Made by a program: the position numbers and the translations under genes. Below, piece after piece: positions 24,565 through 50,222 of a stretch of DNA of 64,000 nt. The notes beneath the pieces were generated by a model, which worked only from the letters and a program-made list of their open reading frames with translations, was not told the origin of the DNA and did not search any database. The DNA lies in assembly GCA_002269645.1 (NCBI GenBank), contig NIVC01003668.1, forward strand, positions 19,962-83,961, read 5' to 3'. The DNA comes from Macrostomum lignano (Eukaryota). How positions within the stretch are numbered: position 1 is the stretch's first letter; each line of letters opens with the position of its first letter.

Positions 24565-26030
24565 GGGAATTGCTGAGATGTCAAATCTTACAGGGGGAAT
24601 TGCTGAGATGTCAAAGCTTACAGGGGGAATTGCTGAGATGTCAAAGCTTACAGGGGGAATTGCTGAGATATCAAAGCTTACAGGGGGAATTGCTAAGATA
24701 TTGTAGTGATCCGCTAGTTGATGCTAGGCGTCCCACTTTGTCAGCAGTCTCCCTCGCCCTCGCCCTGGGTTGCTGTCTGCCTCTGGTCAGCTTCCCACCT
24801 CCCTTGGCCCGTCTGTTGCTGCCCCTGGCCTGTTCTGCCCTTCTGCGTCTCCGTTCTCAGCCCCCAGTCTCTCGACTGTGGGCTGTCTCTGTTTCGCTTC
24901 CGTCCCGTTTTTCCCTGTCTTGTGAGCAAGTCACATGACAGTTCTTGCGTTCTTTGAGTCTTAAAGTGCAGTACACATGTTTACTGCACTCGCTGGCCCT
25001 GTTTACCGGGTGAGTCACATGCTTTCGGTCCCCTCCCTTCTCTAAGGAGAGGAGTGACTCATGTTGCTAAAAATAGCAACAGTCACAGACATGTGTACTC
25101 TGCCGGGGGACCCTCAAGTGACGTCAGTTCTAAAAATAGAACAAGTCACGAGGTCTTCCGTGCGCTAGAACCCTGCCCGAGATGCTCAAGTGACGTCAGT
25201 TCTAAAAATAGAACAAGTCACGAGATCTTGTAAGCGGGTGTTTCCTGGCTATAAATAGGACCCCCCTCCCCCTTGTTTCCGTCAAGGAGTCTAGTTCTTC
25301 CCGAGATCATGAGTTCTAATTCCGTGTGACTACGTCCCGAGTGTCTGAGTCTCTGCGTACATTGAGTCTGTTCTTATTGGTCTGACTGAGACCCGACTAA
25401 AGCCAACCCGAGCCTACGAGAGGCTAACTTAGCCCTCCCTTTATCACCCAAGCCCGGCAGGTACTGCTGACGAGACGCCTAGTACGTTGAGCTGCAAATC
25501 TGCACTTGGTGCTGTGTTCGTTGACTTCGTTATTTCGTTCCGACGGGAAGCTCACCTCACCGAAGGCCGAGACCTGAAGGAACTGGTGGCAGCACTACCT
25601 ACGCTACTAAAAGTTAAGAAGGCTTCTGAGTAAGAGGACGGAGCCCAAGTCACTGCGCTGTACAGCAGGACAACCACAGGTACAACAATATCAAAGCTTA
25701 CAGGGGAATTGCTGAGATGTCAAGGCTTACAGGGGAATTGCTGAGATGTCAAGGCTTACAGGGGAATTGCTGAGATGTCAAGGCTTAGAGGGGAATTGCT
25801 GAGATGTCAAGGCTTACAGGGGAATTGCTGAGATGTCAAGGCTTACAGGGGGAATTGCTGAGATGTCAAGGCTTACAGTGGATAATTGCTGAGATCTCAA
25901 GGCTTATGGGGATAATTGGTAAGATGTCAAGGCTTACAGGGGAATTGCTGAGATCTCAAAGCTTAAAGGAGAATTGCTAAGATGTCAAAGCTTACAGGGA
26001 TAATTGCTAAGATATCAAAGTTTATTTGGG
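24565..26030. repeat. 29-30-bp minisatellite interrupted by a solo LTR
   Basis: GGGGAATTGCTGAGATGTCAA(A/G)GCTTACA on both sides of 24702-25687. Confidence 0.9.
24702..25687 (+). mobile_element. Solo LTR, diverged relative of Gypsy family B
   Basis: TGTAGTGA...GTACAACA, 986 bp, 4-bp TSD ATAT (24698-24701, 25688-25691), collinear homology to the reverse complement of 29965-30960, TATA at 25250. Confidence 0.93.
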
Positions 26031-28357: not shown

Positions 28358-29964
28358 AAAAAGAAAAATTTCCAATAACTCGAAAACTGACTGAGTTACC
28401 CCCCTTACTGACTGGTGTAAGTTACTGTAAATGGCTGCAACTGGCCAAAAAATAGCAAGCCTATAATACTAAATATTGATATAATATAAGCTAACGAGAA
28501 CGACTTAGCCTACGACCTATGACCTATGCTAAGTCTATGATTTGTTTCTTTGACTAGGCCTATCCATGAAAACTTTTGAATACAGAAAGCCATGCGTATC
28601 GCGACATATTCTCTACTTTATTAGGCCTACACTCGAATCTTATAGTTATAGGCCTAGGGCCTACTCCAATTAGAAATAGATTAATTAGCATAAAAAATGA
28701 CAATTTTATGGTGTTAGGCCTTTTTATGTATTTTAAGTTCTAATGCAATGCAAACTCTACCTTTTGAGTTTAGACCTACATTTATAATCATAGCTAGGGA
28801 GACACAGACTAACACAGAGACAGAGTCAGACAAGCCTAAGCCTAAGCTAAGGCATTTCAACCTTTGTCTAGGGTCTAGCCTCGGTTAGGCCTGCTGCCTA
28901 AAGCTATAGCCTGGGACTCTAGAGAAATTGTAGGACTTAATGTCAAAACTGAACTTGTCAACTAATTGTCCTTATGACACTTATTTATGGTAGTATAATT
29001 ATAAATTGTTAGGCCTATATAAAGCAAGAGGATAATAATTAGGGATTTTTTATTTTTGACTTTACTTTTATTAGTCTAAGTTGACATAACATTCCCAATT
29101 ATTCTCTTGCTCATTCCCCCTTATCTAAAATTCAACTTTTGTCACTGGCACTGCCAAATCCAGGTTCCTAGGCCCTAGGCCTACCTAGTGACATTGCAAA
29201 CAAAATGTTATGTCAAATCATTTGTGTAGGTCTATATAGGTTACTTGGGCTCCACTTAATGAGCTTAAATTGACAAGCCCTTTGTAATTGCAATTTTGGT
29301 CCCAACTAGGCCTAAGCCCTACTTTTATTCATGTAAAATTATTATATTATATTGATATAAAGTAAATAGCTTATATTAAACTAAATAAACTAATATTCCT
29401 TTATGAATTGATCTTAATGACTTTATTCAGATAAAAAGGTTGATATATTTGAATTCAAGCAAGGTTAGAAAAGTCATTGAAATTTTATTAAAACTTTATT
29501 AGCCTATTTTTTATTTAAAAAATAAGGCAATATAAATATATATCTTAGTGCCACTTTATACATAGGCCTACCCAACACCCATCTAACCCATCTGAACCAG
29601 ATGGGTAAAATGGCCACCCACTAGCCAAGGTAAGTTGCAAAATTGAAAATGCAAAAAATGAAAAATTGGAAGAAAAAATAAAAGAAAAAAGGAAGGAAAA
29701 GAGAAAAAGAGGAGAGAGGAGAGAGAAAAAGAAAGAGAATAAAGAAGAATAAGGCAAGAAAAGTCATATACAAAGTGAAAATTAAGTTGCAATTAAAAGA
29801 AACTAAATTATAATCAGGAGGAACTAAGTTGCAATCAGGAGGAACTAAGTTGCAATCTGGACAAAACTAAGTTGCACCAGATGGGTGAAATTTTGAAGTT
29901 GGACATGTATGGTGCATAGCCTTTGAATCAGATATACAAGAGCATGGATATATATATATATATA

Positions 29965-30960
29965 TGAAGTACAATGGGGTTTCTTCCCGGTTTCGGCCCT
30001 TGCGGATTACCTTCAGACTCGGGCCTCTTCAGTGGGAAGTTCTCTCAACTTTCTCAGTAGCGTAGGTAGTGCTGCCACCAGTTCCTTCAGGTCTCGGCCT
30101 TCGGTGAGGTGAGCTTCCCGTCGGAACGAAATAATGAAGTCAACGAACACAGCACGACGTGCAGATTTGCAGCTCACGTATAAGGCGTCTCGTCAGCAGC
30201 ACCTGCCGGGCTTGGATGGTACAGGGAGGGCGGAGTTAGCCTCTCGTAAACTTGGGTTGGTTTTGGTCAGGTCTCAGTCGGAGCAATAGGAACAGAATCA
30301 ATGTGCGCAAAGATTCGGACACTCGGGACTCAGTCACACGCGGACGTAGAACTCGAGGTTGAACAGAAGGAAGACTCCTTGACGGAAACAAGGGGGAGAG
30401 GGCTCCTATTTATAGCCGGGAAATTCCCACGCTCCAGACCTCGTGACTTGTTCTATTTTTAGAACTGACGTCACTCGAGAGTCTCAGGCAGGGTTCAAGC
30501 GCGCGGAAGACCTCGTGACTTGTTCTATTTTTAGAACTGACGTCACTTGAGGGTCCCCGGCAGAGTACACATGGCTGTGACTCAGTTGCTATTTTTAGCA
30601 ACATGAGTCACTCCTCTCCTTAGAAAAGGGAGGGGTCCGAAAGCATGTGACTCACCCGGTAAACAGGGCCAACGAGTGCAGTAAACATGTTTACTGCACT
30701 TTAAGACTCAAAGAACGCAAGAGCTGTCATGTGACTTGCTCACAAGACAGGGAAAACAGGACGGGAGCGAAACAGAGACAGCCCACAGTCGAGAGACTGA
30801 GGGCTGAGAACGGAAACGCAGCAGGGCGGAAAGGACACGGGGGCAACAGGCAAGCGAAAGGAGGGCGGGAAGCTGACCAGCGGCAGACAGCAACCCAAAG
30901 GGAGGGCGAGGGAACGGCTGACAAGGGTGACGCCTAGCCATAAACTAGCGGCTCACTACA
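29965..30960 (-). repeat. Family B LTR (3' LTR)
   Basis: TGTAGTGAG...GTACTTCA on the minus strand; 996 bp. Confidence 0.95.
30417..30700 (-). promoter_or_regulatory. U3 enhancer/promoter motif cluster (FoxO x2, AP-1 x3, MEF2 x3, CRE x2, kB-like); TATA just left of it at ~30406-30413
   Basis: Exact consensus matches; positions are given in the finding. Function is inferred. Confidence 0.6.
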
Positions 30961-31604
30961 CTCTCCCCGTTCAAATAAAGAGGCGGAGTGAAGGCGGAGC
31001 GCGCCTTTATTTAAAAAGGTAAACTGCAGAAAATAAAATTTTGATTGGCAAAAAGGTGGTAACTTTGGCAGAATAGCAGAGAAGGGGCTGGGTTAGGCCC
31101 ATGATTGAAACCCTAAACGCGTGTGCGGGGGCGCCTGCCCGCTTGAAGTCAGCGCCTAAATACCGGGTTGCACAAATAACTGCAGCGCCCGTAAAAAGGA
31201 TGGCAAATACCGGTAATGGGACAAAAGAAGCCACAGTGGGCTATAAAAGCGCGGCTGGGCGGGGCCGTAGCTCGTACTACCGCCCCATACGGTATTAATG
31301 GAGTCATACCAAAGCATGAAGGGGGGCGCCAGCCCCATGATACGCAAGAGGCGCCTAAATATGGGGGATGCGGGAGTTCATGCAGAGCCCCGGGGGAAAA
31401 AGGCAAAAGACTGGCCACAAGGGCACAAATGGTTGATGCCGAAAATGAGCACAAAGGACAAATGCCGCTCATATACGAAGAGGGGAAGTAAACGGCGCGA
31501 CTGCGCAAAAATTCGCACGTGCAGCGCAGGGCTGCTGAGGGCGCTAGCAAAAGGGCGCGACGAAAATTGGAGTCACCTGGGGTTTGTCAGTCCAGGGTTT
31601 AAAG

Positions 31605-32450
31605 TTACTCTTGCCGGTCACAGTGGCGCACGAGATCCGGGACCTCCGGCGTCCGACCCGCCATCTGGGCCGCAATTAGCCGGGCGACGACGCGGGCCGT
31701 CTCGGGATGCGGCGGACGTCTGAGCGTCGGTGCTGCGAGCTGGGCGGCCTCGTCCATTAGTCGCTGCCGATCCTCATCCATAAGGGCGCGGAGACAGGCC
31801 CATCGCGGCCAGTCCGCGAGGGTTGGCAGTCGGTTCAATTGGGCGGCAGCAGTCAGCTGTTGGGCGATAAAATACACCGCCTCAATATAGCGGTTAACGG
31901 CAGCTTGAACAGCTGGCGAAAGGCCCGGTGGCGACGATCCGTTGTCCTCGGACTCATTGTCTGATGAGTCTGGGTCGCGTGGCTCCGGCGAGTTGGGCGG
32001 TGCCGGAGGGACTGCGTTGTTTGTAGGCAGGGCCTGTCGCAGCTCGGTGGTTAGCTCCTGCAGGGTGGTCGCCTCCGAATTGTTGCCGTCAGTCTGGCAG
32101 GCGGCCTCTACTCTGCCTGGGGCCACGGGGTTCTCTGGCTCGGGAACAGTTGGCAGCCAGACTTGGTCGTCGCGGGGCGGTGAAGCCGGTTCCAGTCGGA
32201 GCTCTGGCCCCGCTATTCTGCAAAGAAAAACTGAGTTGGGGGCGGGCTGCGCCGACGGTTTGCTGGCGTCATCCGACGACTCTGGCCGGGCGTCCCGAGT
32301 TTCGATCTTAGTCGATGTTGGCGTCGGCTGCCGGGGCGCGAGCTGTTGTCGAAGCTCCGCTAGGCCTTCGGCGACGACTTCGGCGGCCGACCCACCGGCC
32401 GGTCGGTACTTAGTAGTCGGGCTTAGCCCCGGGGAGTCCGGCTCCGTCAA
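31605..32450 (-). CDS. ORF downstream of pol (ORF3, not env), copy 1
   Basis: 281-codon open frame, nearly identical to 39869-40714; no early ATG. Confidence 0.5.
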   Translation of the reverse strand: MTEPDSPGLSPTTKYRPAGGSAAEVVAEGLAELRQQLAPRQPTPTSTKIETRDARPESSDDASKPSAQPAPNSVFLCRIAGPELRLEPASPPRDDQVWLPTVPEPENPVAPGRVEAACQTDGNNSEATTLQELTTELRQALPTNNAVPPAPPNSPEPRDPDSSDNESEDNGSSPPGLSPAVQAAVNRYIEAVYFIAQQLTAAAQLNRLPTLADWPRWACLRALMDEDRQRLMDEAAQLAAPTLRRPPHPETARVVARLIAAQMAGRTPEVPDLVRHCDRQE

Positions 32451-32451
32451 G

Positions 32452-35400
32452 TCAATGAAGACGGGCGTCGGCGGTCGGGGACGCTGGTGTCTCGCCCTTG
32501 GGCTCGACGACTTCGTATAAGGCTTTGCGAGGTCGATGAAATTTCGCCGCTTCGTCCGGTTTGAGCACCGGGTTGTTGAGGAAGACCAGATCGCCGGGTT
32601 GGAGCTTCTTGGCGGCGGGCAGGTTCGAGTAGTGCTCGTCTCGCAGTTGTTGGTGCAGGTGCAGGCGCTCCTTGGCCAGCTCAGTCGCCTCGTCCAGGCG
32701 ACACTGGAAGTCTTTGACGTAGTCGGGCAGATCGGCGTACTCAGGCAGCTTCTTCAGCGCGTTGTCGATCGGGAGTCGGAAGTCACGGCTGAACACCAGG
32801 TAGTGAGGCGTGAAACCTGTCACCGGGTGGACGCTGGAGCGGAGAGCCATCAGGCAGGCTGGGAGGTAGGTATCCCAGTCGTTGTGGTTGCGCTCAAGCA
32901 GACAGGTGAGGACCTTCTTCAGTTGTTTGTTCAGATTCTCGACTTGTCCATTGGAAGCTGGGTTGTATGGTGTTGTTGTCGTATGCCGAATGCCAAACAG
33001 GTCGCAGAACTTCTTGAAGGCCGAACCGGTGAAGTTGGTGCCTTGGTCGGTGTGGATCCAGCATGGTACACCGAACTCGGGGATGAAGCGCTCCTGCAGA
33101 AGCTTGATGACTGTTTTGGCTTTCTGGTTTCTCATCGGGTAGGCGAATGGATACTTCGACGTCGCATCGCACAAGGTCAGGATGTAGCGGTTGCCGCTCT
33201 TGCTCTTCTGCGCGATTGGTCCTACTACATCACAGTGTATTCTACCCAGAACTTCGCAAACTGGAAAGCTCTGGACCGGAACTCTCTCTCGCCGTCGCGA
33301 TTTACTTTCAAGGCAGGTGCGGCACTTACTGATGAAGGTCTTGGTAGTACGGGCTAATCCGGGTCTCCAGAACCGTTCTCGTAGCCGCAGTAACGTCTTC
33401 GTCTCGCCGAGGTGTCCACACAGTGGGGAACTGTGGAGCTCCTGGAGCACCTGGGCGTCAAGGGCCTCAGGCAGAACAACCTTGGGCGGCTGCTGTCCAT
33501 CAGTCAGATCAATCAGCAGCAGGCCGTTGTCCTCCTGCAGGTTCTCGTAGTATCCGAGCAGATTCCGCTGCTCCTTAGTCAGTCGCAACCGGGCGTCGAA
33601 CTCAGGCTTCGGGGCTTCGTTCTCGACCAGGTTGAGCACGTAGCTGATGGCTCGGTCAGCGCGTTGGGCGTCAACGAACTGTTGGCGAGTCATCGGCAGC
33701 TTCAGAAAATCAGTGAGCACAGCGCGGCATGGCTGAGGGGTCATGACTCCCGCAGTCTCCGCTTTAATGGCTCCAGGTCGATCACACGGCACCGTCTTGT
33801 CGGCGTCAGGATTAGGTCGCTCCGAGGGACTTTGTCTCACAACGTCGGCGTACGTCCGTTGATCTAGAATCGAAGTTCTCTTCATCGCTCTCATGACAGA
33901 AAAATCCGCAGATGGAGCAGCGCGCATGCCTCCACTGCATAGCCCAGGCGACTCTTGGCTGTAGGGCGGGACGCAACACGTGAAGCACGCCTCGTCGCTG
34001 GCAGCCGTAGCCGTCGGCTCAATCGTAGTCAAAATTGGGTGAGTCTTCTCCAGCACTGGGCGGTGTCGCAAAGGGGGACTCGACTTTCCGCACAGGCGAT
34101 GAGCAGCTGTCTGTCGGCCCGGGGGACAGAGCTTCGACCTTGCAGCTGGCGCGAGATTCTGGCCTCTGTCAACACGGCGAGAAATCTCAGCGAAAGGCTC
34201 AGTAGGGTTGTAGTTAAATTGCTTGCCTGGAGTTGCATTGCGGGCCGTCATCAGAAGGGCTGCTGGTGCGGTGGCCTTTGAATCTTGGTCCGTGGGCGTC
34301 TCCAGAGTCCGAGACCTGTAGTCTTGGGCGTCGTCAAGGAGGTCTGTGTCCACAGTGGCCTCAAGGTCTTCGTCCAGGTTGGTCTCCAAATTGCAGCGGG
34401 CGGCATGGGCATCGCGGCAGAGGGCTGTTGTCGCAGTGGCCTCTGGGTTGTCGTCCAGGCCGATCTCCAGGCGTTGACTGCAGCGGTGGGCGTCGTGCTG
34501 GAAGGCTGCTGGCGCGGTGGCTTCCAGGTCTTCGTCCAGGTCAGTCTCGGCCTCCAAGCAGCGAGATTGGACTGTCTTCTGGAGGGCTGCTCTGGCAGTG
34601 GCCTCGGGTGTCGGGTCCAAATCCGGTTCCAGGTCGTGGTCGTCACCGGGTCGGGCGGTAGAACCAGGTTGCTCTAGCAGTCGGCCATGCTCGAAGAAGA
34701 TCGGCGGGCCCTCCGGTCTTCTTGACAGGGCATCAGCATTGGCGTGGTCCTTGCCTTTGCGGTGGTTGAGCTGGAAGCGGAACTCGCTTAGGCGCTCGAT
34801 CCAGCGGCCTAAAATACCTGTGGCCTGAGTTTGGTTCAGTAACCACAGTAAGGCCCGATGATCGGATCGAACTTCAAACTTCTTGCCGATTAAGTAATGA
34901 CGGAAATGTCGCATAGCGTCCACAATTGCAAGCAGCTCTTTCTTCGTGACCGTGTAGCGCTTCTCAGGATCGCGAAGTTTACGGCTAAAGAATGCAATTG
35001 GACGTTCGACGCCGTCTGATTGCAGTTGTCCAAGACAAGCGCCTATTCGAATATCAGAGGCATCCGTGTCGAGGACAAACTTCACAGCAGGATCAGAATT
35101 AAATTCAGGCAGAGCGAGAACTTCAGTAGAACACAATTTCTTCTTCAAAGTGTCGAACGCGTGCTGATGCTCGGGAGTCCAATGCTGCCGCAGGCTGCCG
35201 ATGTCCTTTCGCGTCAGGGCATGCAGCGGCGCAGCCACTCCAGCGTAGCCGTCGACAAACTTGTGGTAGTAATTGGCGAGGCCTAGGAATTGTCTCAGTT
35301 GAGTAACGGACTGTGGCACGGGCCAATCACGGATCTGCGCAATCTTGTCCTCACAGGTCTTCAGGCCGTCGGGAGTCACGACGTGACCTAAATAATGCAG

Positions 35401-37109
35401 CTCCTTGAGGAACAAATGACACTTCTTCGGTTTCACTTTGAGGTTGGCTGCGATGATGCGCTGGAGCACAGTCGCAGATTATCCAGCTGTTCCTCAAAAG
35501 TCACTGAGTGCACCACGATGTCGTCCATGTAGCCAAGCGCAGTCTTTGGCGTCAGGCCGTCCAGGAGCTTATTGATGCAACGCTGAAAGCTGCCGGGACT
35601 ATCGTGGAGACCCATCGGTAGAACATTAAAACAGAATTGGCCGCGGTCGATTACTGAGAATGCCGTCAAGTGCTGGTCGCAGTCGCGCAGCGGGATCTGC
35701 CAGAATCCTTGAGCAAGGTCCAAGCTAGAATACCACTGAGCACCACGAAGCTTCGCGAAGGTTTCCTGGATGTGCGGGAGTGGATACGGGTGATACACAC
35801 ACCTGTCGTTGAGAGCTCTGAAGTCGTGGACTAGTCGGATGTTGCCGTCCTTCTTGGGCACGATGAGCATTGGCGAGTTGTAGCTCGAGTAGGCAGGGCG
35901 AACGATATGCTTCGCCAGCATCTCGTCTAGCAGGGCGTCGAGCTTGTCCTTCAGATGAGGCGGAATTCGGCGCGGTGGTAGCGCGACTGGTGTCCGGTCC
36001 TTCAAGATGATCTCGTGGGTCACCAGGTGAGTCAGGCCGGCGTCTAGCGAGTGCTTGGAGAAGGCCGCTTGACATTCGACTAGTAGATCTCTCACTCTTC
36101 GATGTTGTTCTTTGGACAATTCGCTGTTGATCTCGACTTCATCTAGCCATGCTGTGCTGGATTCTTCAGAGTTCTTCGGGAGGTGTCGCACTTCAGGTTC
36201 GGGCGTCTCGCTCAGGTACATCAGGTCGGCAGTTCGGAGTGGCGTCGCAACACCCACACGGATACCGGCTTGCAGGAACACCTCGCTGTCGGCGGTGTTG
36301 ACGACCTCAATGTAGCCGCGACCTTCAGGCATCGTCATCAGAGCAGGCGCTGCTTCCAGAGCGTTGCAGCTGGGATGCAGCCTCGACTTAACCAGCTCGA
36401 CAATTGATGGCGATCCTCGATTCTCAGGGTGGCCGTCATCCAATCTGACGGGAAGCAGCGCTGAACTTCTAGGCGGCAGGGTGCACTTCTCGGAGGTGTA
36501 CACTCGGCAGGTTTGAAGCTCACGATGCGAATAACGAACAGGGATACACGTGCCATTGTTGAACGTTAGCATTCCTTGAGCGAAGTCCAAGTTCTGGCAG
36601 TGCTCTCGCATAAACGATACGCCAAGAAAATTTTCACAATCGGAGACCGTGACGAGGAATTCGGTGTCCGCGACGACATCACCGAACTCCACCGGAATGG
36701 TCACCTTACAAGCAAGTGGGAGCTGCGTCCCATCATACATAGTTACGCAATCGGGAATAGCATGCGATATAATACAACGAGGCATCCGACGTCTAATAGC
36801 GGCCCAGGTTGACGAACCAAGAAAGTTTTTCCGGCTGCCGCTGTCAAGCAAGAAAGGGACCTCTCGACTCGCAACTCGACCTGTGACGTACGGATCGGCC
36901 TCACGCGCATGGATTTTTTGATTCGGGGAGGTGTCCACGAAACCTCCGCACTCCGCGTCACTTACTGACGAGCGACTGTCGGACTGGGCATTGGCGCCTG
37001 CACAGCCGACATCCTCTTCTTCTGGTGACCTCTCGGAGTCTGCCAAGTAGCCTGGGCTTGGACCTCGCGGAGGGCGGTGCCGTTGTCGCTCTCCGCCTGG
37101 CCGTTTCCC
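32452..37109 (-). pseudogene. pol, copy 1 (1-nt deletion near 35476)
   Basis: Same sequence as copy 2 except CACAGTCGCAG versus CACAGTCCGCAG, which splits the ORF just after the RT YMDD motif. Confidence 0.92.
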
Positions 37110-38136
37110 TGGTTCTGGCGCGTCGGGCACTGGGTGTTGCGATGACCGGGCTGTCCGCAGCTATAGCAGATTATAGCTCTCTTTGGCGGGCTGGCTACCT
37201 GCTGTTGGTCACGCTGCACCAGGTGATCCAGCATTCGCTGCTGCTTCTCAATCAAGTCGGTTAGAGTCGGTAAGGCTTGGGCGGTGACGTCGGGTTTCGG
37301 GTCGCCGTCCTCCTCCCCGTCCAACATCCTAACCGGGGGTTGAGCAGATCGGTGCGCCAATTCTTTGGCGCCTTCTAGTCGTCGTAGCTCTCGAATCGCA
37401 GCAAGAAGATTGTTCGGGCGAACCCAGTACAGCCGTTCGCGCAGATCTGGAGTCGTCCGGATACCAGCAAGAAATTAATCAGTAATCTCCTTCTCGCGGT
37501 CTTCAGGATGCATTCGAGGATATGCACGTTCACCCAGAGTTCTCAGGGCGTCAGCGAACTCTTCTGCTGACTCATTCTTGCCTTGTTGACGACGTCGCAA
37601 CAGTTCTCGATACTCATCAGCACCACCATGACGGGCAAATCGCTCAATCAGACGTTGCTTGACCTCCCGTAGCTGGCGAAACGCGGAAGATTCATACCAA
37701 GCAAGGCTGGATACGCAGTAGCCAAATCGAGACTCGCGATGAGGTGTTGTTTCATCTCGAACGGGTCGACGATGCGCTCCATCTCGCAACGCTGCTCGAA
37801 CGCGGCAAGCCAGACATGAATGTCCTGACTTGGAGTAAACTTTACAATTTTAACTTGTTTACTCACAGGCCGCTCCATCTGCTGCTGCAGAGCTGCCATC
37901 ATGGTCCTCACGTCCTGGTGCGTGATGTTCCGGCCGATGTTGTCCAGGCCTTGCAGAAGCTCGTCTGGCGGGTCGTCGGACACGTCGCTTCTCGCACCTT
38001 GCCTCGGCGTTGGCTGCTGACCAAAGTCGTTGATCGCTGCTGCTGCTGCGGCGGCTTCTGCTGCCGCAGGCCTCGAACTGCTGATGTGCTGATCCAGCCG
38101 GCTGCTGCACCGGCTCTCGTCTCGCTCGTTGAACAT
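36962..38136 (-). pseudogene. gag, copy 1 (frameshift near 37665 plus in-frame TAA at 37475-37477)
   Basis: CCC versus CCCC relative to copy 2; capsid-like RRQQGKNESAEEFADAL; CCHC knuckle CYSCGQPGHRNTQC. Confidence 0.88.
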
Positions 38137-38228
38137 GTTGAACTCGTCGTAGTCGCTGGCCGATGTCGTTCTCGAAAGAGCGGTTGGCTTGGGTGTGTCG
38201 TAGTCGGATCTCACCGCTGCGTCACCAG

Positions 38229-39224
38229 TGAAGTACAATGGGGTTTCTTCCCGGTTTCGGCCCTTGCGGATTACCTTCAGACTCGGGCCTCTTCAGTGGG
38301 AAGTTCTCTCAACTTTCTCAGTAGCGTAGGTAGTGCTGCCACCAGTTCCTTCAGGTCTCGGCCTTCGGTGAGGTGAGCTTCCCGTCGGAACGAAATAATG
38401 AAGTCAACGAACACAGCACGACGTGCAGATTTGCAGCTCACGTATAAGGCGTCTCGTCAGCAGCACCTGCCGGGCTTGGATGGTACAGGGAGGGCGGAGT
38501 TAGCCTCTCGTAAACTTGGGTTGGTTTTGGTCAGGTCTCAGTCGGAGCAATAGGAACAGAATCAATGTGCGCAAAGATTCGGACACTCGGGACTCAGTCA
38601 CACGCGGACGTAGAACTCGAGGTTGAACAGAAGGAAGACTCCTTGACGGAAACAAGGGGGAGAGGGCTCCTATTTATAGCCGGGAAATTCCCACGCTCCA
38701 GACCTCGTGACTTGTTCTATTTTTAGAACTGACGTCACTCGAGAGTCTCAGGCAGGGTTCAAGCGCGCGGAAGACCTCGTGACTTGTTCTATTTTTAGAA
38801 CTGACGTCACTTGAGGGTCCCCGGCAGAGTACACATGGCTGTGACTCAGTTGCTATTTTTAGCAACATGAGTCACTCCTCTCCTTAGAAAAGGGAGGGGT
38901 CCGAAAGCATGTGACTCACCCGGTAAACAGGGCCAACGAGTGCAGTAAACATGTTTACTGCACTTTAAGACTCAAAGAACGCAAGAGCTGTCATGTGACT
39001 TGCTCACAAGACAGGGAAAACAGGACGGGAGCGAAACAGAGACAGCCCACAGTCGAGAGACTGAGGGCTGAGAACGGAAACGCAGCAGGGCGGAAAGGAC
39101 ACGGGGGCAACAGGCAAGCGAAAGGAGGGCGGGAAGCTGACCAGCGGCAGACAGCAACCCAAAGGGAGGGCGAGGGAACGGCTGACAAGGGTGACGCCTA
39201 GCCATAAACTAGCGGCTCACTACA
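38229..39224 (-). repeat. Family B shared central LTR
   Basis: 996 bp; flanked by the PPT of one copy and the PBS of the other, with no TSD. Confidence 0.95.
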
Positions 39225-39868
39225 CTCTCCCCGTTCAAATAAAGAGGCGGAGTGAAGGCGGAGCGCGCCTTTATTTAAAAAGGTAAACTGCAGAAAATAA
39301 AATTTTGATTGGCAAAAAGGTGGTAACTTTGGCAGAATAGCAGAGAAGGGGCTGGGTTAGGCCCATGATTGAAACCCTAAACGCGTGTGCGGGGGCGCCT
39401 GCCCGCTTGAAGTCAGCGCCTAAATACCGGGTTGCACAAATAACTGCAGCGCCCGTAAAAAGGATGGCAAATACCGGTAATGGGACAAAAGAAGCCACAG
39501 TGGGCTATAAAAGCGCGGCTGGGCGGGGCCGTAGCTCGTACTACCGCCCCATACGGTATTAATGGAGTCACACCAAAGCATGAAGGGGGGCGCCAGCCCC
39601 ATGATACGCAAGAGGCGCCTAAATATGGGGGATGCGGGGGTTCATGCAGAGCCCCGGGGGAAAAAGGCAAAAGACTGGCCACAAGGGCACAAATGGTTGA
39701 TGCCGAAAATGAGCACAAAGGACAAATGCCGCTCATATACGAAGAGGGGAAGTAAACGGCGCGACTGCGCAAAAATTCGCACGTGCAGCGCAGGGCTGCT
39801 GAGGGCGCTAGCAAAAGGGCGCGACGAAAATTGGAGTCACCTGGGGTTTGTCAGTCCAGGGTTTAAAG

Positions 39869-40714
39869 TTACTCTTGCCGGTCACAGTGGCGCACGAGAT
39901 CCGGGACCTCCGGCGTCCGACCCGCCATCTGGGCCGCAATTAGCCGGGCGACGACGCGGGCCGTCTCGGGATGCGGCGGACGTCTGAGCGTCGGTGCTGC
40001 GAGCTGGGCGGCCTCGTCCATTAGTCGCTGCCGATCCTCATCCGTAAGGGCGCGGAGACAGGCCCATCGCGGCCAGTCCGCGAGGGTTGGCAGTCGGTTC
40101 AATTGGGCGGCAGCAGTCAGCTGTTGGGCGATAAAATACACCGCCTCAATATAGCGGTTAACGGCAGCTTGAACAGCTGGCGAAAGGCCCGGTGGCGACG
40201 ATCCGTTGTCCTCGGACTCATTGTCTGATGAGTCTGGGTCGCGTGGCTCCGGCGAGTTGGGCGGTGCCGGAGGGACTGCGTTGTTTGTAGGCAGGGCCTG
40301 TCGCAGCTCGGTGGTTAGCTCCTGCAGGGTGGTCGCCTCCGAATTGTTGCCGTCAGTCTGGCAGGCGGCCTCTACTCTGCCTGGGGCCACGGGGTTCTCC
40401 GGCTCGGGAACAGTTGGCAGCCAGACTTGGTCGTCGCGGGGCGGTGAAGCCGGTTCCAGTCGGAGCTCTGGCCCCGCTATTCTGCAAAGAAAAACTGAGT
40501 TGGGGGCGGGCTGCGCCGACGGTTTGCTGGCGTCATCCGACGACTCTGGCCGGGCGTCCCGAGTTTCGATCTTAGTCGATGTTGGCGTCGGCTGCCGGGG
40601 CGCGAGCTGTTGTCGAAGCTCCGCTAGGCCTTCGGCGACGACTTCGGCGGCCGACCCACCGGCCGGTCGGTACTTAGTAGTCGGGCTTAGCCCCGGGGAG
40701 TCCGGCTCCGTCAA
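39869..40714 (-). CDS. ORF downstream of pol (ORF3, not env), copy 2
   Basis: 281-codon open frame, +1 relative to pol; Pro/Ser/Ala-rich N-half and helical-looking C-terminal part. Confidence 0.5.
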   Translation of the reverse strand: MTEPDSPGLSPTTKYRPAGGSAAEVVAEGLAELRQQLAPRQPTPTSTKIETRDARPESSDDASKPSAQPAPNSVFLCRIAGPELRLEPASPPRDDQVWLPTVPEPENPVAPGRVEAACQTDGNNSEATTLQELTTELRQALPTNNAVPPAPPNSPEPRDPDSSDNESEDNGSSPPGLSPAVQAAVNRYIEAVYFIAQQLTAAAQLNRLPTLADWPRWACLRALTDEDRQRLMDEAAQLAAPTLRRPPHPETARVVARLIAAQMAGRTPEVPDLVRHCDRQE

Positions 40715-40715
40715 G

Positions 40716-43700
40716 TCAATGAAGACGGGCGTCGGCGGTCGGGGACGCTGGCGTCTCGCCCTTGGGCTCGACGACTTCGTATAAGGCTTTGCGAGGTCGA
40801 TGAAATTTCGCCGCTTCGTCCGGTTTGAGCACCGGGTTGTTGAGGAAGACCAGATCGCCGGGTTGGAGCTTCTTGGCGGCGGGCAGGTTCGAGTAGTGCT
40901 CGTCTCGCAGTTGTTGGTGCAGGTGCAGGCGCTCCTTGGCCAGCTCAGTCGCCTCGTCCAGGCGACACTGGAAGTCTTTGACGTAGTCGGGCAGATCGGC
41001 GTACTCAGGCAGCTTCTTCAGCGCGTTGTCGATCGGGAGTCGGAAGTCACGGCCGAACACCAGGTAGTGAGGCGTGAAACCTGTCACCGGGTGGACGCTG
41101 GAGCGGAGAGCCATCAGGCAGGCTGGGAGGTAGGTATCCCAGTCGTTGTGGTTGCGCTCAAGCAGACAGGTGAGGACCTTCTTCAGTTGTTTGTTCAGAT
41201 TCTCGACTTGTCCATTGGAAGCTGGGTTGTATGGTGTTGTTGTCGTATGCCGAATGCCAAACAGGTCGCAGAACTTCTTGAAGGCCGAACCGGTGAAGTT
41301 GGTGCCTTGGTCGGTGTGGATCCAGCATGGTACACCGAACTCGGGGATGAAGCGCTCCTGCAGAAGCTTGATGACTGTTTTGGCTTTCTGGTTTCTCATC
41401 GGGTAGGCGAATGGATACTTCGACGTCGCATCGCACAAGGTCAGGATGTAGCGGTTGCCGCTCTTGCTCTTCTGCGCGATTGGTCCTACTACATCACAGT
41501 GTATTCTACCCAGAACTTCGCAAACTGGAAAGCTCTGGACCGGAACTCTCTCTCGCCGTCGCGATTTACTTTCAAGGCAGGTGCGGCACTTACTGATGAA
41601 GGTCTTGGTAGTACGGGCTAATCCGGGTCTCCAGAACCGTTCTCGTAGCCGCAGTAACGTCTTCGTCTCGCCGAGGTGTCCACACAGTGGGGAACTGTGG
41701 AGCTCCTGGAGCACCTGGGCGTCAAGGGCCTCAGGCAGAACAACCTTGGGCGGCTGCTGTCCATCAGTCAGATCAATCAGCAGCAGGCCGTTGTCCTCCT
41801 GCAGGTTCTCGTAGTATCCGAGCAGATTCCGCTGCTCCTTAGTCAGTCGCAACCGGGCGTCGAACTCAGGCTTCGGGGCTTCGTTCTCGACCAGGTTGAG
41901 CACGTAGCTGATGGCTCGGTCAGCGCGTTGGGCGTCAACGAACTGTTGGCGAGTCATCGGCAGCTTCAGAAAATCAGTGAGCACAGCGCGGCATGGCTGA
42001 GGGGTCATGACTCCCGCAGTCTCCGCTTTAATGGCTCCAGGTCGATCACACGGCACCGTCTTGTCGGCGTCAGGATTAGGTCGCTCCGAGGGACTTTGTC
42101 TCACAACGTCGGCGTACGTCCGTTGATCTAGAATCGAAGTTCTCTTCATCGCTCTCATGACAGAAAAATCCGCAGATGGAGCAGCGCGCATGCCTCCACT
42201 GCATAGCCCAGGCGACTCTTGGCTGTAGGGCGGGACGCAACACGTGAAGCACGCCTCGTCGCTGGCAGCCGTAGCCGTCGGCTCAATCGTAGTCAAAATT
42301 GGGTGAGTCTTCTCCAGCACTGGGCGGTGTCGCAAAGGGGGACTCGACTTTCCGCACAGGCGATGAGCAGCTGTCTGTCGGCCCGGGGGACAGAGCTTCG
42401 ACCTTGCAGCTGGCGCGAGATTCTGGCCTCTGTCAACACGGCGAGAAATCTCAGCGAAAGGCTCAGTAGGGTTGTAGTTAAATTGCTTGCCTGGAGTTGC
42501 ATTGCGGGCCGTCATCAGAAGGGCTGCTGGTGCGGTGGCCTTTGAATCTTGGTCCGTGGGCGTCTCCAGAGTCCGAGACCTGTAGTCTTGGGCGTCGTCA
42601 AGGAGGTCTGTGTCCACAGTGGCCTCAAGGTCTTCGTCCAGGTTGGTCTCCAAATTGCAGCGGGCGGCATGGGCATCGCGGCAGAGGGCTGTTGTCGCAG
42701 TGGCCTCTGGGTTGTCGTCCAGGCCGATCTCCAGGCGTTGACTGCAGCGGTGGGCGTCGTGCTGGAAGGCTGCTGGCGCGGTGGCTTCCAGGTCTTCGTC
42801 CAGGTCAGTCTTGGCCTCCAAGCAGCGAGATTGGACTGTCTTCTGGAGGGCTGCTCTGGCAGTGGCCTCGGGTGTCGGGTCCAAATCCGGTTCCAGGTCG
42901 TGGTCGTCACCGGGTCGGGCGGTAGAACCAGGTTGCTCTAGCAGTCGGCCATGCTCGAAGAAGATCGGCGGGCCCTCCGGTCTTCTTGACAGGGCATCAG
43001 CATTGGCGTGGTCCTTGCCTTTGCGGTGGTTGAGCTGGAAGCGGAACTCGCTTAGGCGCTCGATCCAGCGGCCTAAAATACCTGTGGCCTGAGTTTGGTT
43101 CAGTAACCACAGTAAGGCCCGATGATCGGATCGAACTTCAAACTTCTTGCCGATTAAGTAATGACGGAAATGTCGCATAGCGTCCACAATTGCAAGCAGC
43201 TCTTTCTTCGTGACCGTGTAGCGCTTCTCAGGATCGCGAAGTTTACGGCTAAAGAATGCAATTGGACGTTCGACGCCGTCTGATTGCAGTTGTCCAAGAC
43301 AAGCGCCTATTCGAATATCAGAGGCATCCGTGTCGAGGACAAACTTCACAGCAGGATCAGAATTAAATTCAGGCAGAGCGAGAACTTCAGTAGAACACAA
43401 TTTCTTCTTCAAAGTGTCGAACGCGTGCTGATGCTCGGGAGTCCAATGCTGCCGCAGGCTGCCGATGTCCTTTCGCGTCAGGGCATGCAGCGGCGCAGCC
43501 ACTCCAGCGTAGCCGTCGACAAACTTGTGGTAGTAATTGGCGAGGCCTAGGAATTGTCTCAGTTGAGTAACGGACTGTGGCACGGGCCAATCACGGATCT
43601 GCGCAATCTTGTCCTCACAGGTCTTCAGGCCGTCGGGAGTCACGACGTGACCTAAATAATGCAGCTCCTTGAGGAACAAATGACACTTCTTCGGTTTCAC

Positions 43701-45374
43701 TTTGAGGTTGGCTGCGATGATGCGCTGGAGCACAGTCCGCAGATTATCCAGCTGTTCCTCAAAAGTCACTGAGTGCACCACGATGTCGTCCATGTAGCCA
43801 AGCGCAGTCTTTGGCGTCAGGCCGTCCAGGAGCTTGTTAATGCAACGCTGAAAGCTGCCGGGACTATCGTGGAGACCCATCGGTAGAACATTAAAACAGA
43901 ATTGGCCGCGGTCGATTACTGAGAATGCCGTCAAGTGCTGGTCGCAGTCGCGCAGCGGGATCTGCCAGAATCCTTGAGCAAGGTCCAAGCTAGAATACCA
44001 CTGAGCACCACGAAGCTTCGCGAAGGTTTCCTGGATGTGCGGGAGCGGATACGGGTGATACACACACCTGTCGTTGAGAGCTCTGAAGTCGTGGACTAGT
44101 CGGATGTTGCCGTCCTTCTTGGGCACGATGAGCATTGGCGAGTTGTAGCTCGAGTAGGCAGGGCGAACGATATGCTTCGCCAGCATCTCGTCTAGCAGGG
44201 CGTCGAGCTTGTCCTTCAGATGAGGCGGAATTCGGCGCGGTGGTAGCGCGACTGGTGTCCGGTCCTTCAAGATGATCTCGTGGGTCACCAGGTGAGTCAG
44301 GCCGGCGTCTAGCGAGTGCTTGGAGAAGGCCGCTTGACATTCGACTAGTAGATCTCTCACTCTTCGATGTTGTTCTTTGGACAATTCGCTGTTGATCTCG
44401 ACTTCATCTAGCCATGCTGTGCTGGATTCTTCAGAGTTCTTCGGGAGGTGTCGCACTTCAGGTTCGGGCGTCTCGCTCAGGTACATCAGGTCGGCAGTTC
44501 GGAGTGGCGTCGCAACACCCACACGGATACCGGCTTGCAGGAACACCTCGCTGTCGGCGGTGTTGACGACCTCAATGTAGCCGCGACCTTCAGGCATCGT
44601 CATCAGAGCAGGCGCTGCTTCCAGAGCGTTGCAGCTGGGATGCAGCCTCGACTTAACCAGCTCGACAATTGATGGCGATCCTCGATTCTCAGGGTGGCCG
44701 TCATCCAATCTGACGGGAAGCAGCGCTGAACTTCTAGGCGGCAGGGTGCACTTCTCGGAGGTGTACACTCGGCAGGTTTGAAGCTCACGATGCGAATAAC
44801 GAACAGGGATACACGTGCCATTGTTGAACGTTAGCATTCCTTGAGCGAAGTCCAAGTTCTGGCAGTGCTCTCGCATAAACGATACGCCAAGAAAATTTTC
44901 ACAATCGGAGACCGTGACGAGGAATTCGGTGTCCGCGACGACATCACCGAACTCCACCGGAATGGTCACCTTACAAGCAAGTGGGAGCTGCGTCCCATCA
45001 TACATAGTTACGCAATCGGGAATAGCATGCGATATAATACAACGAGGCATCCGACGTCTAATAGCGGCCCAGGTTGACGAACAAAGAAAGTTTTTCCGGC
45101 TGCCGCTGTCAAGCAAGAAAGGGACCTCTCGACTCGCAACTCGACCTGTGACGTACGGATCGGCCTCACGCGCATGGATTTTTTGATTCGGGGAGGTGTC
45201 CACGAAACCTCCGCACTCCGCGTCACTTACTGACGAGCGACTGTCGGACTGGGCATTGGCGCCTGCACAGCCGACATCCTCTTCTTCTGGTGACCTCTCG
45301 GAGTCTGCCAAGTAGCCTGGGCTTGGACCTCGCGGAGGGCGGTGCCGTTGTCGCTCTCCGCCTGGCCGTTTCCC
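40716..45374 (-). CDS. pol, copy 2 (intact frame: PR, RT, RNase H, insert, IN)
   Basis: LLDSGS protease; GYMDDIV RT; LDTDAS RNase H; H-H-C-C, IHCDVVG, HTDQGTNF and GQVENLN integrase. Entered via GGGAAAC at 45374-45368. Confidence 0.95.
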   Translation of the reverse strand, partial: GKRPGGERQRHRPPRGPSPGYLADSERSPEEEDVGCAGANAQSDSRSSVSDAECGGFVDTSPNQKIHAREADPYVTGRVASREVPFLLDSGSRKNFLCSSTWAAIRRRMPRCIISHAIPDCVTMYDGTQLPLACKVTIPVEFGDVVADTEFLVTVSDCENFLGVSFMREHCQNLDFAQGMLTFNNGTCIPVRYSHRELQTCRVYTSEKCTLPPRSSALLPVRLDDGHPENRGSPSIVELVKSRLHPSCNALEAAPALMTMPEGRGYIEVVNTADSEVFLQAGIRVGVATPLRTADLMYLSETPEPEVRHLPKNSEESSTAWLDEVEINSELSKEQHRRVRDLLVECQAAFSKHSLDAGLTHLVTHEIILKDRTPVALPPRRIPPHLKDKLDALLDEMLAKHIVRPAYSSYNSPMLIVPKKDGNIRLVHDFRALNDRCVYHPYPLPHIQETFAKLRGAQWYSSLDLAQGFWQIPLRDCDQHLTAFSVIDRGQFCFNVLPMGLHDSPGSFQRCINKLLDGLTPKTALGYMDDIVVHSVTFEEQLDNLRTVLQRIIAANLKVKPKKCHLFLKELHYLGHVVTPDGLKTCEDKIAQIRDWPVPQSVTQLRQFLGLANYYHKFVDGYAGVAAPLHALTRKDIGSLRQHWTPEHQHAFDTLKKKLCSTEVLALPEFNSDPAVKFVLDTDASDIRIGACLGQLQSDGVERPIAFFSRKLRDPEKRYTVTKKELLAIVDAMRHFRHYLIGKKFEVRSDHRALLWLLNQTQATGILGRWIERLSEFRFQLNHRKGKDHANADALSRRPEGPPIFFEHGRLLEQPGSTARPGDDHDLEPDLDPTPEATARAALQKTVQSRCLEAKTDLDEDLEATAPAAFQHDAHRCSQRLEIGLDDNPEATATTALCRDAHAARCNLETNLDEDLEATVDTDLLDDAQDYRSRTLETPTDQDSKATAPAALLMTARNATPGKQFNYNPTEPFAEISRRVDRGQNLAPAARSKLCPPGRQTAAHRLCGKSSPPLRHRPVLEKTHPILTTIEPTATAASDEACFTCCVPPYSQESPGLCSGGMRAAPSADFSVMRAMKRTSILDQRTYADVVRQSPSERPNPDADKTVPCDRPGAIKAETAGVMTPQPCRAVLTDFLKLPMTRQQFVDAQRADRAISYVLNLVENEAPKPEFDARLRLTKEQRNLLGYYENLQEDNGLLLIDLTDGQQPPKVVLPEALDAQVLQELHSSPLCGHLGETKTLLRLRERFWRPGLARTTKTFISKCRTCLESKSRRRERVPVQSFPVCEVLGRIHCDVVGPIAQKSKSGNRYILTLCDATSKYPFAYPMRNQKAKTVIKLLQERFIPEFGVPCWIHTDQGTNFTGSAFKKFCDLFGIRHTTTTPYNPASNGQVENLNKQLKKVLTCLLERNHNDWDTYLPACLMALRSSVHPVTGFTPHYLVFGRDFRLPIDNALKKLPEYADLPDYVKDFQCRLDEATELAKERLHLHQQLRDEHYSNLPAAKKLQPGDLVFLNNPVLKPDEAAKFHRPRKALYEVVEPKGETPASPTADARLH

Positions 45375-46399
45375 TGGTTCTGGCGCGTCGGGCACTGGGT
45401 GTTGCGATGACCGGGCTGTCCGCAGCTATAGCAGATTATAGCTCTCTTTGGCGGGCTGGCTACCTGCTGTTGGTCACGCTGCACCAGGTGATCCAGCATT
45501 CGCTGCTGCTTCTCAATCAAGTCGGTTAGAGTCGGTAAGGCTTGGGCGGTGACGTCGGGTTTCGGGTCGCCATCCTCCTCCCCGTCCAACATCCTAACCG
45601 GGGGTTGAGCAGATCGGTGCGCCAATTCTTTGGCGCCTTCTAGTCGTCGTAGCTCTCGAATCGCAGCAAGAAGATTGTTCGGGCGAACCCAGTACAGCCG
45701 TTCGCGCAGATCTGGAGTCGTCCGGATACCAGCAAGAAATTAATCAGTAATCTCCTCGCGGTCTTCAGGATGCATTCGAGGATATGCACGTTCACCCAGA
45801 GTTCTCAGGGCGTCAGCGAACTCTTCTGCTGACTCATTCTTGCCTTGTTGACGACGTCGCAACAGTTCTCGATACTCATCAGCACCACCATGACGGGCAA
45901 ATCGCTCAATCAGACGTTGCTTGACCTCCCCGTAGCTGGCGAAACGCGGAAGATTCATACCAAGCAAGGCTGGATACGCAGTAGCCAAATCGAGACTCGC
46001 GATGAGGTGTTGTTTCATCTCGAACGGGTCGACGATGCGCTCCATCTCGCAACGCTGCTCGAACGCGGCAAGCCAGACATGAATGTCCTGACTTGGAGTA
46101 AACTTTACAATTTTAACTTGTTTACTCACAGGCCGCTCCATCTGCTGCTGCAGAGCTGCCATCATGGTCCTCACGTCCTGGTGCGTGATGTTCCGGCCGA
46201 TGTTGTCCAGGCCTTGCAGAAGCTCGTCTGGCGGGTCGTCGGACACGTCGCTTCTCGCACCTTGCCTCGGCGTTGGCTGCTGACCAAAGTCGTTGACCGC
46301 TGCTGCTGCTGCGGCGGCTTCTGCTGCCGCAGGCCTCGAACTGCTGATGTGCTGATCCAGCCGGCTGCTGCACCGGCTCTCGTCTCGCTCGTTGAACAT
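45227..46399 (-). pseudogene. gag, copy 2 (in-frame TAA at 45740-45742)
   Basis: The frame continues past the stop as EITD*FLAGIRTTPDLRE... to the CCHC knuckle; first ATG at 46399. Confidence 0.88.
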
Positions 46400-46491
46400 G
46401 TTGAACTCGTCGTAGTCGCTGGCCGATGTCGTTCTCGAAAGAGCGGTTGGCTTGGGTGTGTCGTAGTCGGATCTCACCGCTGCGTCACCAG

Positions 46492-47487
46492 TGAAGTACA
46501 ATGGGGTTTCTTCCCGGTTTCGGCCCTTGCGGATTACCTTCAGACTCGGGCCTCTTCAGTGGGAAGTTCTCTCAACTTTCTCAGTAGCGTAGGTAGTGCT
46601 GCCACCAGTTCCTTCAGGTCTCGGCCTTCGGTGAGGTGAGCTTCCCGTCGGAACGAAATAATGAAGTCAACGAACACAGCACGACGTGCAGATTTGCAGC
46701 TCACGTATAAGGCGTCTCGTCAGCAGCACCTGCCGGGCTTGGATGGTACAGGGAGGGCGGAGTTAGCCTCTCGTAAACTTGGGTTGGTTTTGGTCAGGTC
46801 TCAGTCGGAGCAATAGGAACAGAATCAATGTGCGCAAAGATTCGGACACTCGGGACTCAGTCACACGCGGACGTAGAACTCGAGGTTGAACAGAAGGAAG
46901 ACTCCTTGACGGAAACAAGGGGGAGAGGGCTCCTATTTATAGCCGGGAAATTCCCACGCTCCAGACCTCGTGACTTGTTCTATTTTTAGAACTGACGTCA
47001 CTCGAGAGTCTCAGGCAGGGTTCAAGCGCGCGGAAGACCTCGTGACTTGTTCTATTTTTAGAACTGACGTCACTTGAGGGTCCCCGGCAGAGTACACATG
47101 GCTGTGACTCAGTTGCTATTTTTAGCAACATGAGTCACTCCTCTCCTTAGAAAAGGGAGGGGTCCGAAAGCATGTGACTCACCCGGTAAACAGGGCCAAC
47201 GAGTGCAGTAAACATGTTTACTGCACTTTAAGACTCAAAGAACGCAAGAGCTGTCATGTGACTTGCTCACAAGACAGGGAAAACAGGACGGGAGCGAAAC
47301 AGAGACAGCCCACAGTCGAGAGACTGAGGGCTGAGAACGGAAACGCAGCAGGGCGGAAAGGACACGGGGGCAACAGGCAAGCGAAAGGAGGGCGGGAAGC
47401 TGACCAGCGGCAGACAGCAACCCAAAGGGAGGGCGAGGGAACGGCTGACAAGGGTGACGCCTAGCCATAAACTAGCGGCTCACTACA
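46492..47487 (-). repeat. Family B LTR (5' LTR)
   Basis: 996 bp, followed by the PBS-like sequence on the minus strand. Confidence 0.95.
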
Positions 47488-49667: not shown

Positions 49668-50222
49668 ATGGATTCAGTTAAAACTAATGACACAGTTTGG
49701 ATGCGCCGCTGCCTGAACTTGGCCAATGAAGCACTTGAAGCTGGCGAAGTTCCAGTCGGCTGCGTGATTGTCTCGGCAGATGGAAATGGCGTTGAACTCA
49801 CTAGCGGCAGGAATCGTGTCAACGAAGCTCGAGACGCTACGAGACACGCCGAATTAGTAGCGATCGATGCTCTGAGAGAGCGTTTAGATTCCGCTGAGTC
49901 TCTGCTAGTTGCTTTGTCTGGCGCTGCTCTCTATGTCAGCATTGAGCCGTGCGTTATGTGCGCATCGGCCTTGCGTCAACTTGCCTCGTTTAAACGCGTA
50001 GTTTTTGGCGGTCACAACGAACGTTTTGGTGGCTGCGGCAGCGTTGAAAATGTTCACTCGGATGTTCGACTGCTGCCGGAGTTGCCTCCACTGATTGTTG
50101 AGGCTGGGTTATTGGCGGACGAAGCTGTGGAGCTTTTGCGACAGTTTTATAGACAGGAAAATGCAGCGGCACCGGATGAGAAACGGCGCAGAAAAGAGCC
50201 GCCTACAATGCATGCGTCTTGA
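49668..50222 (+). CDS. ADAT2: tRNA-specific adenosine-34 deaminase catalytic subunit; single coding exon
   Basis: 184 aa; EVPVGC, HAE and EPCVMC zinc-deaminase motifs, NERFGGCGSV, and FYRQEN typical of ADAT2/Tad2. Confidence 0.93.
   Translation: MDSVKTNDTVWMRRCLNLANEALEAGEVPVGCVIVSADGNGVELTSGRNRVNEARDATRHAELVAIDALRERLDSAESLLVALSGAALYVSIEPCVMCASALRQLASFKRVVFGGHNERFGGCGSVENVHSDVRLLPELPPLIVEAGLLADEAVELLRQFYRQENAAAPDEKRRRKEPPTMHAS

Follow-up and report, generated by a model that had tools for sequence, protein, structure and literature searches.

A conserved array of MEF2 and bZIP sites in the LTR of a flatworm Ty3/Gypsy retrotransposon as a candidate mimic of immediate-early promoters

The long terminal repeats (LTRs) of a Ty3/Gypsy retrotransposon of Macrostomum lignano carry, in their U3 region, Forkhead, proximal AP-1, CRE and MEF2 sites which have very probably been maintained by purifying selection relative to the spacers between them. 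This U3 may be a mimic of host jun/fos-type immediate-early promoters, and the element would then be transcribed upon calcium/MAPK signals such as wounding. A probability of roughly 55% is assigned to this reading. The window, i.e., the whole stretch of DNA analysed, is 64,000 nucleotides long, and the element lies in it as a tandem of the form LTR-internal-LTR-internal-LTR with the following parts.

29965 to 30960, minus strand: 3' LTR, 996 bp, TG...CA, with U3 at about 30960 to 30390
30961 to 30970, minus strand: polypurine tract
32452 to 37160, minus strand: pol of the 3' unit, split by a frameshift near 35473
38229 to 39224, minus strand: middle LTR with the same motifs
40716 to 45425, minus strand: pol of the 5' unit, with reverse transcriptase, RNase H and integrase in Ty3/Gypsy order
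45227 to 46555, minus strand: gag-like region, interrupted by an in-frame stop near 45740
46474 to 46491, and also 38211 to 38228, minus strand: primer-binding site, which we take to be of the tRNA-Leu type
46492 to 47487, minus strand: 5' LTR with the same motifs
47488 to 47491 and 29961 to 29964: TATA target-site duplication of the tandem element
24702 to 25687, plus strand: older solo LTR of the family, 88% identical, with an ATAT target-site duplication and common to the sister contig C1784

The TG...CA LTRs, primer-binding site, polypurine tract, target-site duplication and pol domain order identify a Ty3/Gypsy LTR retrotransposon, and the same anatomy bears out the preliminary description of this DNA, which had placed the motif array in an LTR U3. 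The primer-binding site, the polypurine tract and 4-bp target-site duplications recur in many copies of the family, which counts 428 exact 18-base termini in the genome assembly. Ranked by identity, the nearest named pol relatives are proteins of M. lignano (58%). The three LTRs are 100% identical to one another. The tandem insertion is young, since the sister contig has an empty site in its place but shares the solo LTR. Gag is broken in both units (in the 3' unit by a frameshift near 37666) and pol in one.

Several further observations concern the element and its surroundings. Despite the identical LTRs, the internal parts of the tandem (29965 to 47487) differ by 13 substitutions and 3 gaps, for which recombination or assembly effects could be responsible. 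Two forms of the primer-binding site exist in the family, and the form in the window (46474 to 46491) has a 2-base insertion and one change compared to the commoner one. Each form precedes its own internal sequence, which suggests that LTRs are shared between internal types. A 382-aa open frame without a Pfam match (39869 to 41017, minus strand) overlaps the end of pol, in a stretch poorly shared among copies. Between RNase H and integrase, pol contains a long low-complexity insert (residues about 820 to 1200 of protein P0121; window region 43,000 to 42,000). Elsewhere, the window holds a second Gypsy element (1388 to 6140), a deaminase-domain gene (49647 to 50222), a DEG/ENaC channel gene (54838 to 59516) and a Tc1-like transposase with inverted repeats (62395 to 63378).

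Within the U3 of the 3' LTR, the sites are arranged as follows, from the TATA box upstream; the factor names are taken from consensus assignments.

30406 to 30415, minus strand: TATA box CTATAAATAG, which also matches the MEF2 consensus (pi 0.095)
30419 to 30428, minus strand: kB-like site GGGAATTTCC, adjoining the TATA box
30436 to 30497, minus strand: proximal module of CRE (30466 to 30473) and MEF2 (30453 to 30462)
30508 to 30569, minus strand: 72-bp duplicate of this module, CRE (30538 to 30545) and MEF2 (30525 to 30534)
30576 to 30612, minus strand: AP-1 (30604), MEF2 (30589) and AP-1 (30578), a module homologous to the CRE-MEF2 modules and exact in 54 of 70 family copies
30644 to 30654, minus strand: E-box TCAC(A/G)TG (30644 to 30650), overlapped by a non-conserved AP-1 site (30648 to 30654)
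30659 to 30665, minus strand: third Forkhead site
30675 to 30700, no strand assigned: perfect 26-bp palindrome with two inverted Forkhead sites (GTAAACA at 30681, TGTTTAC at 30688)
30724 to 30750, no strand assigned: inverted pair of presumably MiT/TFE-like E-boxes, GTCACATGAC (30726 to 30735) and a partner (30740 to 30748) that is one base off here

Every motif listed in the preliminary description was found again at its position. The third Forkhead site is absent from it, and the E-boxes at 30726 to 30735, 30740 to 30748 and 30644 to 30650 had been overlooked. The three MEF2 sites read CTAAAAATAG on the minus strand, and the proximal one lies 47 bp before the TATA box. Transcription is inferred to start about 25 to 30 bp downstream of that box. 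The centre of the palindrome contains a single p53 half-site.

The array could have arisen neutrally, if local duplication in a young family had multiplied a few motifs present by chance. Indeed, the proposed 72-bp duplication of the CRE and MEF2 sites is confirmed by a 62-bp block (30436 to 30497 and 30508 to 30569) with 90% identity, and the three bZIP-MEF2 sites are copies of one module, so that motif counts are inflated. A kB match alone also arises by chance in 355 of 20,000 shuffles (1.8%). The combination of motifs behaves differently: none of 20,000 dinucleotide shuffles of 30405 to 30750 held even one each of the four motif kinds or exceeded two of the four, nor did any of 337 non-LTR tiles of the window exceed two. 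The motif density of the U3 is beyond chance. Together with the strong deficit of common variants in the motifs described below, this has already largely refuted the neutral account, which is now scarcely credible.

Conservation was assessed in 80 of the first 100 termini listed, which were chosen by terminus only, blind to the motifs. After removal of 3 truncated copies and 7 copies of the same insertion, 70 copies remained, 71 to 98% identical to the window U3. Variability (pi) was 0.044 for the Forkhead sites, 0.045 for CRE, 0.038 for MEF2 and 0.032 for the two proximal AP-1 sites, compared to 0.151 for the spacers, i.e., about three times lower in motif positions. Rare alleles are mostly read as decay after insertion, and common alleles as having passed through active lineages. 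The ratio of rare to common alleles was 80:4 in the motifs and 195:78 in the spacers (p = 1e-6), while rare alleles per site were alike (80 in 88 motif positions, 195 in 188 spacer positions). Thus, the comparison of motifs with spacers across LTR copies, proposed earlier as a check, was passed. Without two poorly aligned copies, the ratios were 51:4 and 142:77 (p = 2e-5); five other allele thresholds gave p between 3e-6 and 1e-3, and the true motif mask was the best of 295 mask shifts. These p-values are approximate, because the copies are related and mosaic and the alignment columns are not fully independent. The CpG positions in the CREs had no common variants, compared to 16 in spacer CpGs. 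The conserved blocks reach past the consensus cores of the motifs.

A different cause of such conservation would be RNA structure, with the palindromes acting as hairpins at the 3' end of the genomic RNA (or arising as template-switching products) and the motif matches being incidental. The U3 does fold far more strongly than its shuffles (z -7.8), and every module is a near-palindrome. The bases flanking MEF2 covary (T-A 121, G-C 50, other 3); these symmetric flanks also match the extended MEF2 consensus, which counts against a hairpin. In two distant relatives (L196 and L197), the outer palindrome arms persist while one Forkhead site is lost, and in one copy the loop of the E-box palindrome is inverted. 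Among spacer positions, conservation is slightly higher where the base is paired (p = 0.025). Against this stands the behaviour of the motif bases themselves. Within the motifs, loop or bulge bases vary about as little as paired ones (pi 0.053 and 0.049), and among unpaired positions alone the motifs are four times more conserved than the spacers (pi 0.053 and 0.200, p = 4e-4). As conservation holds at unpaired positions, hairpin folding does not explain it. Moreover, pairing is disrupted by 16 of the 26 common variants found at paired positions; it survives in 8 through a single change and in only 2 through two changes. A structured RNA is expected to show compensatory covariation and free loops; the loops here are invariant and 2 of 26 variants compensatory. 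A comparison of the U3 with Rfam gave no match. The hairpin explanation is therefore considered improbable.

The sites differ in how widely they are kept. MEF2 stands out as both the best conserved and the most often repeated, its core being exact in 168 of 174 modules, and it is always coupled to CRE or AP-1 at 3 to 5 bp. The number of CRE-MEF2 modules varies from 1 to 3 across the family, and the left site of the module alternates between AP-1 and CRE among copies. CACGTG and CATGTG are both accepted by MiT/TFE and USF factors. The E-box TCAC(A/G)TG at 30644 to 30650 is present in 63 of 70 copies and toggles between these two forms. As in the AP-1/CRE alternation, the changes that arise preserve a motif. 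The GTCACATGAC E-box is found in 53 of 70 copies, the whole palindrome in 43 and both of its Forkhead sites in 51. The U3 thus places conserved MEF2 and CRE/AP-1 sites ahead of a TATA box, as in immediate-early promoters, and combines them with conserved TRTTTAC and E-box motifs of FoxO/TFEB type.

Other parts of the preliminary description have to be narrowed. The distal AP-1 site (30648) occurs in only 23 of 70 copies and overlies the conserved E-box; it is a subfamily feature. The same holds for the exact kB-like site (3 of 70 copies), while the consensus GGGRNWYYCC is found in 21 of 70 and a looser GGG-N4-6-CC frame is common (50 of 64); the centre of this site and the distal AP-1 vary freely. 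A Su(H)/CSL site that overlaps the kB-like stretch was set aside, being present in 3 of 70 copies only. What had been named a FoxO palindrome does contain conserved Forkhead sites, but GTAAACA is not assignable to FoxO in a genome with 151 Forkhead-domain matches, so the name reduces to Forkhead. Most motifs had been reported as retained in the diverged solo LTR. This applies to 2 of 3 AP-1, 2 of 2 CRE, 3 of 3 MEF2 and 2 of 3 Forkhead sites, but not to kB, for which no match was found there.

The host has the corresponding factors, as its genome encodes MEF2, Jun, Fos/ATF3, CREB, FoxO, MiT/TFE and Rel. Rel-homology-domain genes lie in tandem clusters (C109, C475, C1505; L061 to L066) with 24 matches, closest to c-Rel/RelB/p65 structures, an apparent expansion of the NF-kB family in a flatworm. 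For the host promoters, the 7 kb preceding the DNA-binding domain were compared at 20 transcription-factor loci, 7 of jun/fos type and 13 others. In this small, post hoc comparison with inferred start sites, a MEF2 site 32 to 50 bp before a TATA-like box was found at 3 of 7 jun/fos-type loci and at none of the 13 others (p = 0.03). The layout occurs at both jun-type loci and at 1 of 5 fos-type loci; the remaining 4 of 7 jun/fos-type loci lack it within 7 kb. In the fos-type locus, the order is MEF2, AP-1, a GGGAATACCC stretch and TATA, the same as in the LTR. The MEF2-TATA spacing of the LTR would thus match the upstream layout of three host jun/fos-type genes.

In the proposed mechanism, calcium/MAPK signals, e.g., upon wounding, would activate MEF2 and bZIP factors and thereby transcription of the element. 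The proximal modules would bind MEF2 together with CREB/ATF or Jun/Fos, and their arrangement (1 to 3 CRE copies and one AP-1 copy) would give a fast response to the signal. The distal block of Forkhead sites and TCAC(A/G)TG would add a nutrient or stress input of FoxO/TFEB type. Binding of the modules by MEF2/bZIP factors is probable from the motifs, and a signal-inducible U3 is slightly favoured. A starvation input, as suggested by the distal motifs, is tentative and rather unlikely. Contigs of four runs presumed to be RNA cover LTR, gag and pol. Since unique non-coding control DNA had low cover in three of the four and a repeat had very high cover, DNA background multiplied by copy number may account for this.

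The main rival accepts the binding sites as real and takes them to drive steady expression restricted to certain tissues (muscle, neurons or some other somatic niche), not an induced response. MEF2 also drives steady expression in muscle and neurons. The prominence of MEF2 among the conserved sites fits such a role, the factor being described as a differentiation factor of muscle and neurons (PMC6505634), and the conservation tests do not separate steady from induced use. The invariable coupling of MEF2 to CRE/AP-1 and its placement ahead of the TATA box, which resembles the layout at host jun/fos-type genes, argue for an inducible promoter instead. Steady expression is accordingly rated unlikely, and the mimicry of immediate-early promoters is preferred.

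Composite sites of this kind are widespread in the genome. Exact CRE-MEF2 composites number 852, compared to 0 for the reversed control, and MEF2-AP-1 composites 661, compared to 2. Most of the matches among those listed belong to the LTR family of the window. Twenty loci picked for unusual spacers comprised 6 relatives, 3 loci of an unrelated LTR-like family, 5 of another repeat and 6 single sites. The unrelated family, whose LTR status is drawn from its ends and a TATA-like box, carries AP-1/MEF2 arrays before that box. Its similarity to the window LTR is limited to motif-length matches, with nothing alignable, which suggests convergence. This family (L202 to L206, L190, L167) starts with TGTAG and has alternating AP-1/MEF2 sites in opposite orientation and variable number. 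No pol was found beside LTR-like family B at the copies examined. A second repeat family with MEF2-AP-1 sites was seen at L153, L157, L159, L160 and L166.

Some loci outside these families were also inspected. The non-LTR composites at L169, L171, L198, L200 and L201 are short arrays in or near unrelated genes, none an immediate-early gene, and were rejected as candidates. In two of them (L200 on C103, L169 on C96), which are 30-bp tandem arrays, the repeated unit consists of a CRE-MEF2 or MEF2-AP-1 module. The distant relatives of the LTR had been chosen for having CRE-MEF2 and are therefore no test of its conservation. Four distant LTR relatives (L152, L194, L196, L199) show GCGCAAT, presumably C/EBP-like, before the TATA box at the place of the kB-like stretch.

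The earlier suggestion that the LTR is a mobile source of ready-made enhancers is unsupported so far. A co-opted enhancer would be expected at a fixed insertion; the sister contig lacks the tandem element and shares only the older solo LTR. Co-option of LTR copies at host genes is doubtful. The solo LTR lies head to head with an NADPH-cytochrome P450 reductase gene (21049 to 23183), about 1.5 kb from its apparent first coding exon, is shared with the sister contig and is a candidate for co-option. In a broader and still speculative picture, which is somewhat improbable as a whole, flatworm LTR lineages may have partitioned the stress pathways of the host. Besides the published heat-shock families, copies of jun/fos immediate-early promoters (MEF2 and bZIP, with a FoxO/TFEB block) would have evolved separately in this large clade and in at least one other, unrelated LTR-like family. 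These elements would become active upon wounding or starvation, in tissue whose stem cells rebuild the germline, and would have spread several hundred injury-responsive modules, as counted by the exact CRE-MEF2 matches, across the genome of a regenerating animal.

These results bear on the question whether regeneration switches transposons on by direct wound signalling or only by the loss of silencing. The family is a concrete, pre-screened candidate in a regenerating flatworm that is accessible to transgenesis. As the sites kept by selection are now known, a reporter and knockdown test is direct. Furthermore, the family alignment can serve as a natural footprint for the MEF2-bZIP module, in a group for which few motif data exist.

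Tnt1 and Tto1 are wound- and stress-induced LTR elements of plants and belong to Ty1/Copia. Together with ONSEN (PMC12801592), they likewise have a U3 with stress boxes that vary in number and differ between subfamilies; in contrast to the window LTR, they are Ty1/Copia elements responding to plant factors. In M. lignano itself, heat-induced Ty3/Mdg4 LTR families carry heat-shock elements (HSEs) and were tested by a fluorescent reporter (PMC12801592). The window LTR resembles them in bearing host stress-response elements and differs in the canonical HSE, for which the published pattern gave no match on either strand. MEF2, AP-1, CREB and FoxO do not occur in the accessible portion of that paper. 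The immediate-early promoter Zp of EBV BZLF1 has several MEF2D sites (ZI) and a CRE/AP-1 site (ZII), which form a signal-operated switch (PMC2134958). The U3 shares several MEF2 and CRE/AP-1 sites upstream of the start; Zp belongs to a herpesvirus gene and its function was shown experimentally, whereas the U3 is a retrotransposon LTR with fixed 3 to 5 bp bZIP-MEF2 modules, whose function is predicted from sequence. The HTLV-1 LTR is bound by MEF2 together with CREB and needs viral Tax (PMC4374383). The combination is the same, but no Tax-like transactivator is evident in the window element. Calcium/MAPK signals reach the vertebrate immediate-early genes c-jun and Nur77 through MEF2 sites in their promoters (PMC6505634); these are host genes and not mobile elements, and their flatworm counterparts are recognised from sequence. 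CRE and AP-1 are the top motifs of injury-opened chromatin in Hydra (PMC8049744). ChIP in C. elegans found TRTTTAC elements together with E-boxes, as in the distal block, for which Forkhead and bHLH factors are predicted from the motifs. A literature search with little coverage of subscription papers gave no earlier account of an invertebrate LTR of the MEF2/bZIP immediate-early type. LTRs with stress elements are already known, and what this family adds to them is a conserved MEF2/bZIP array of immediate-early type.
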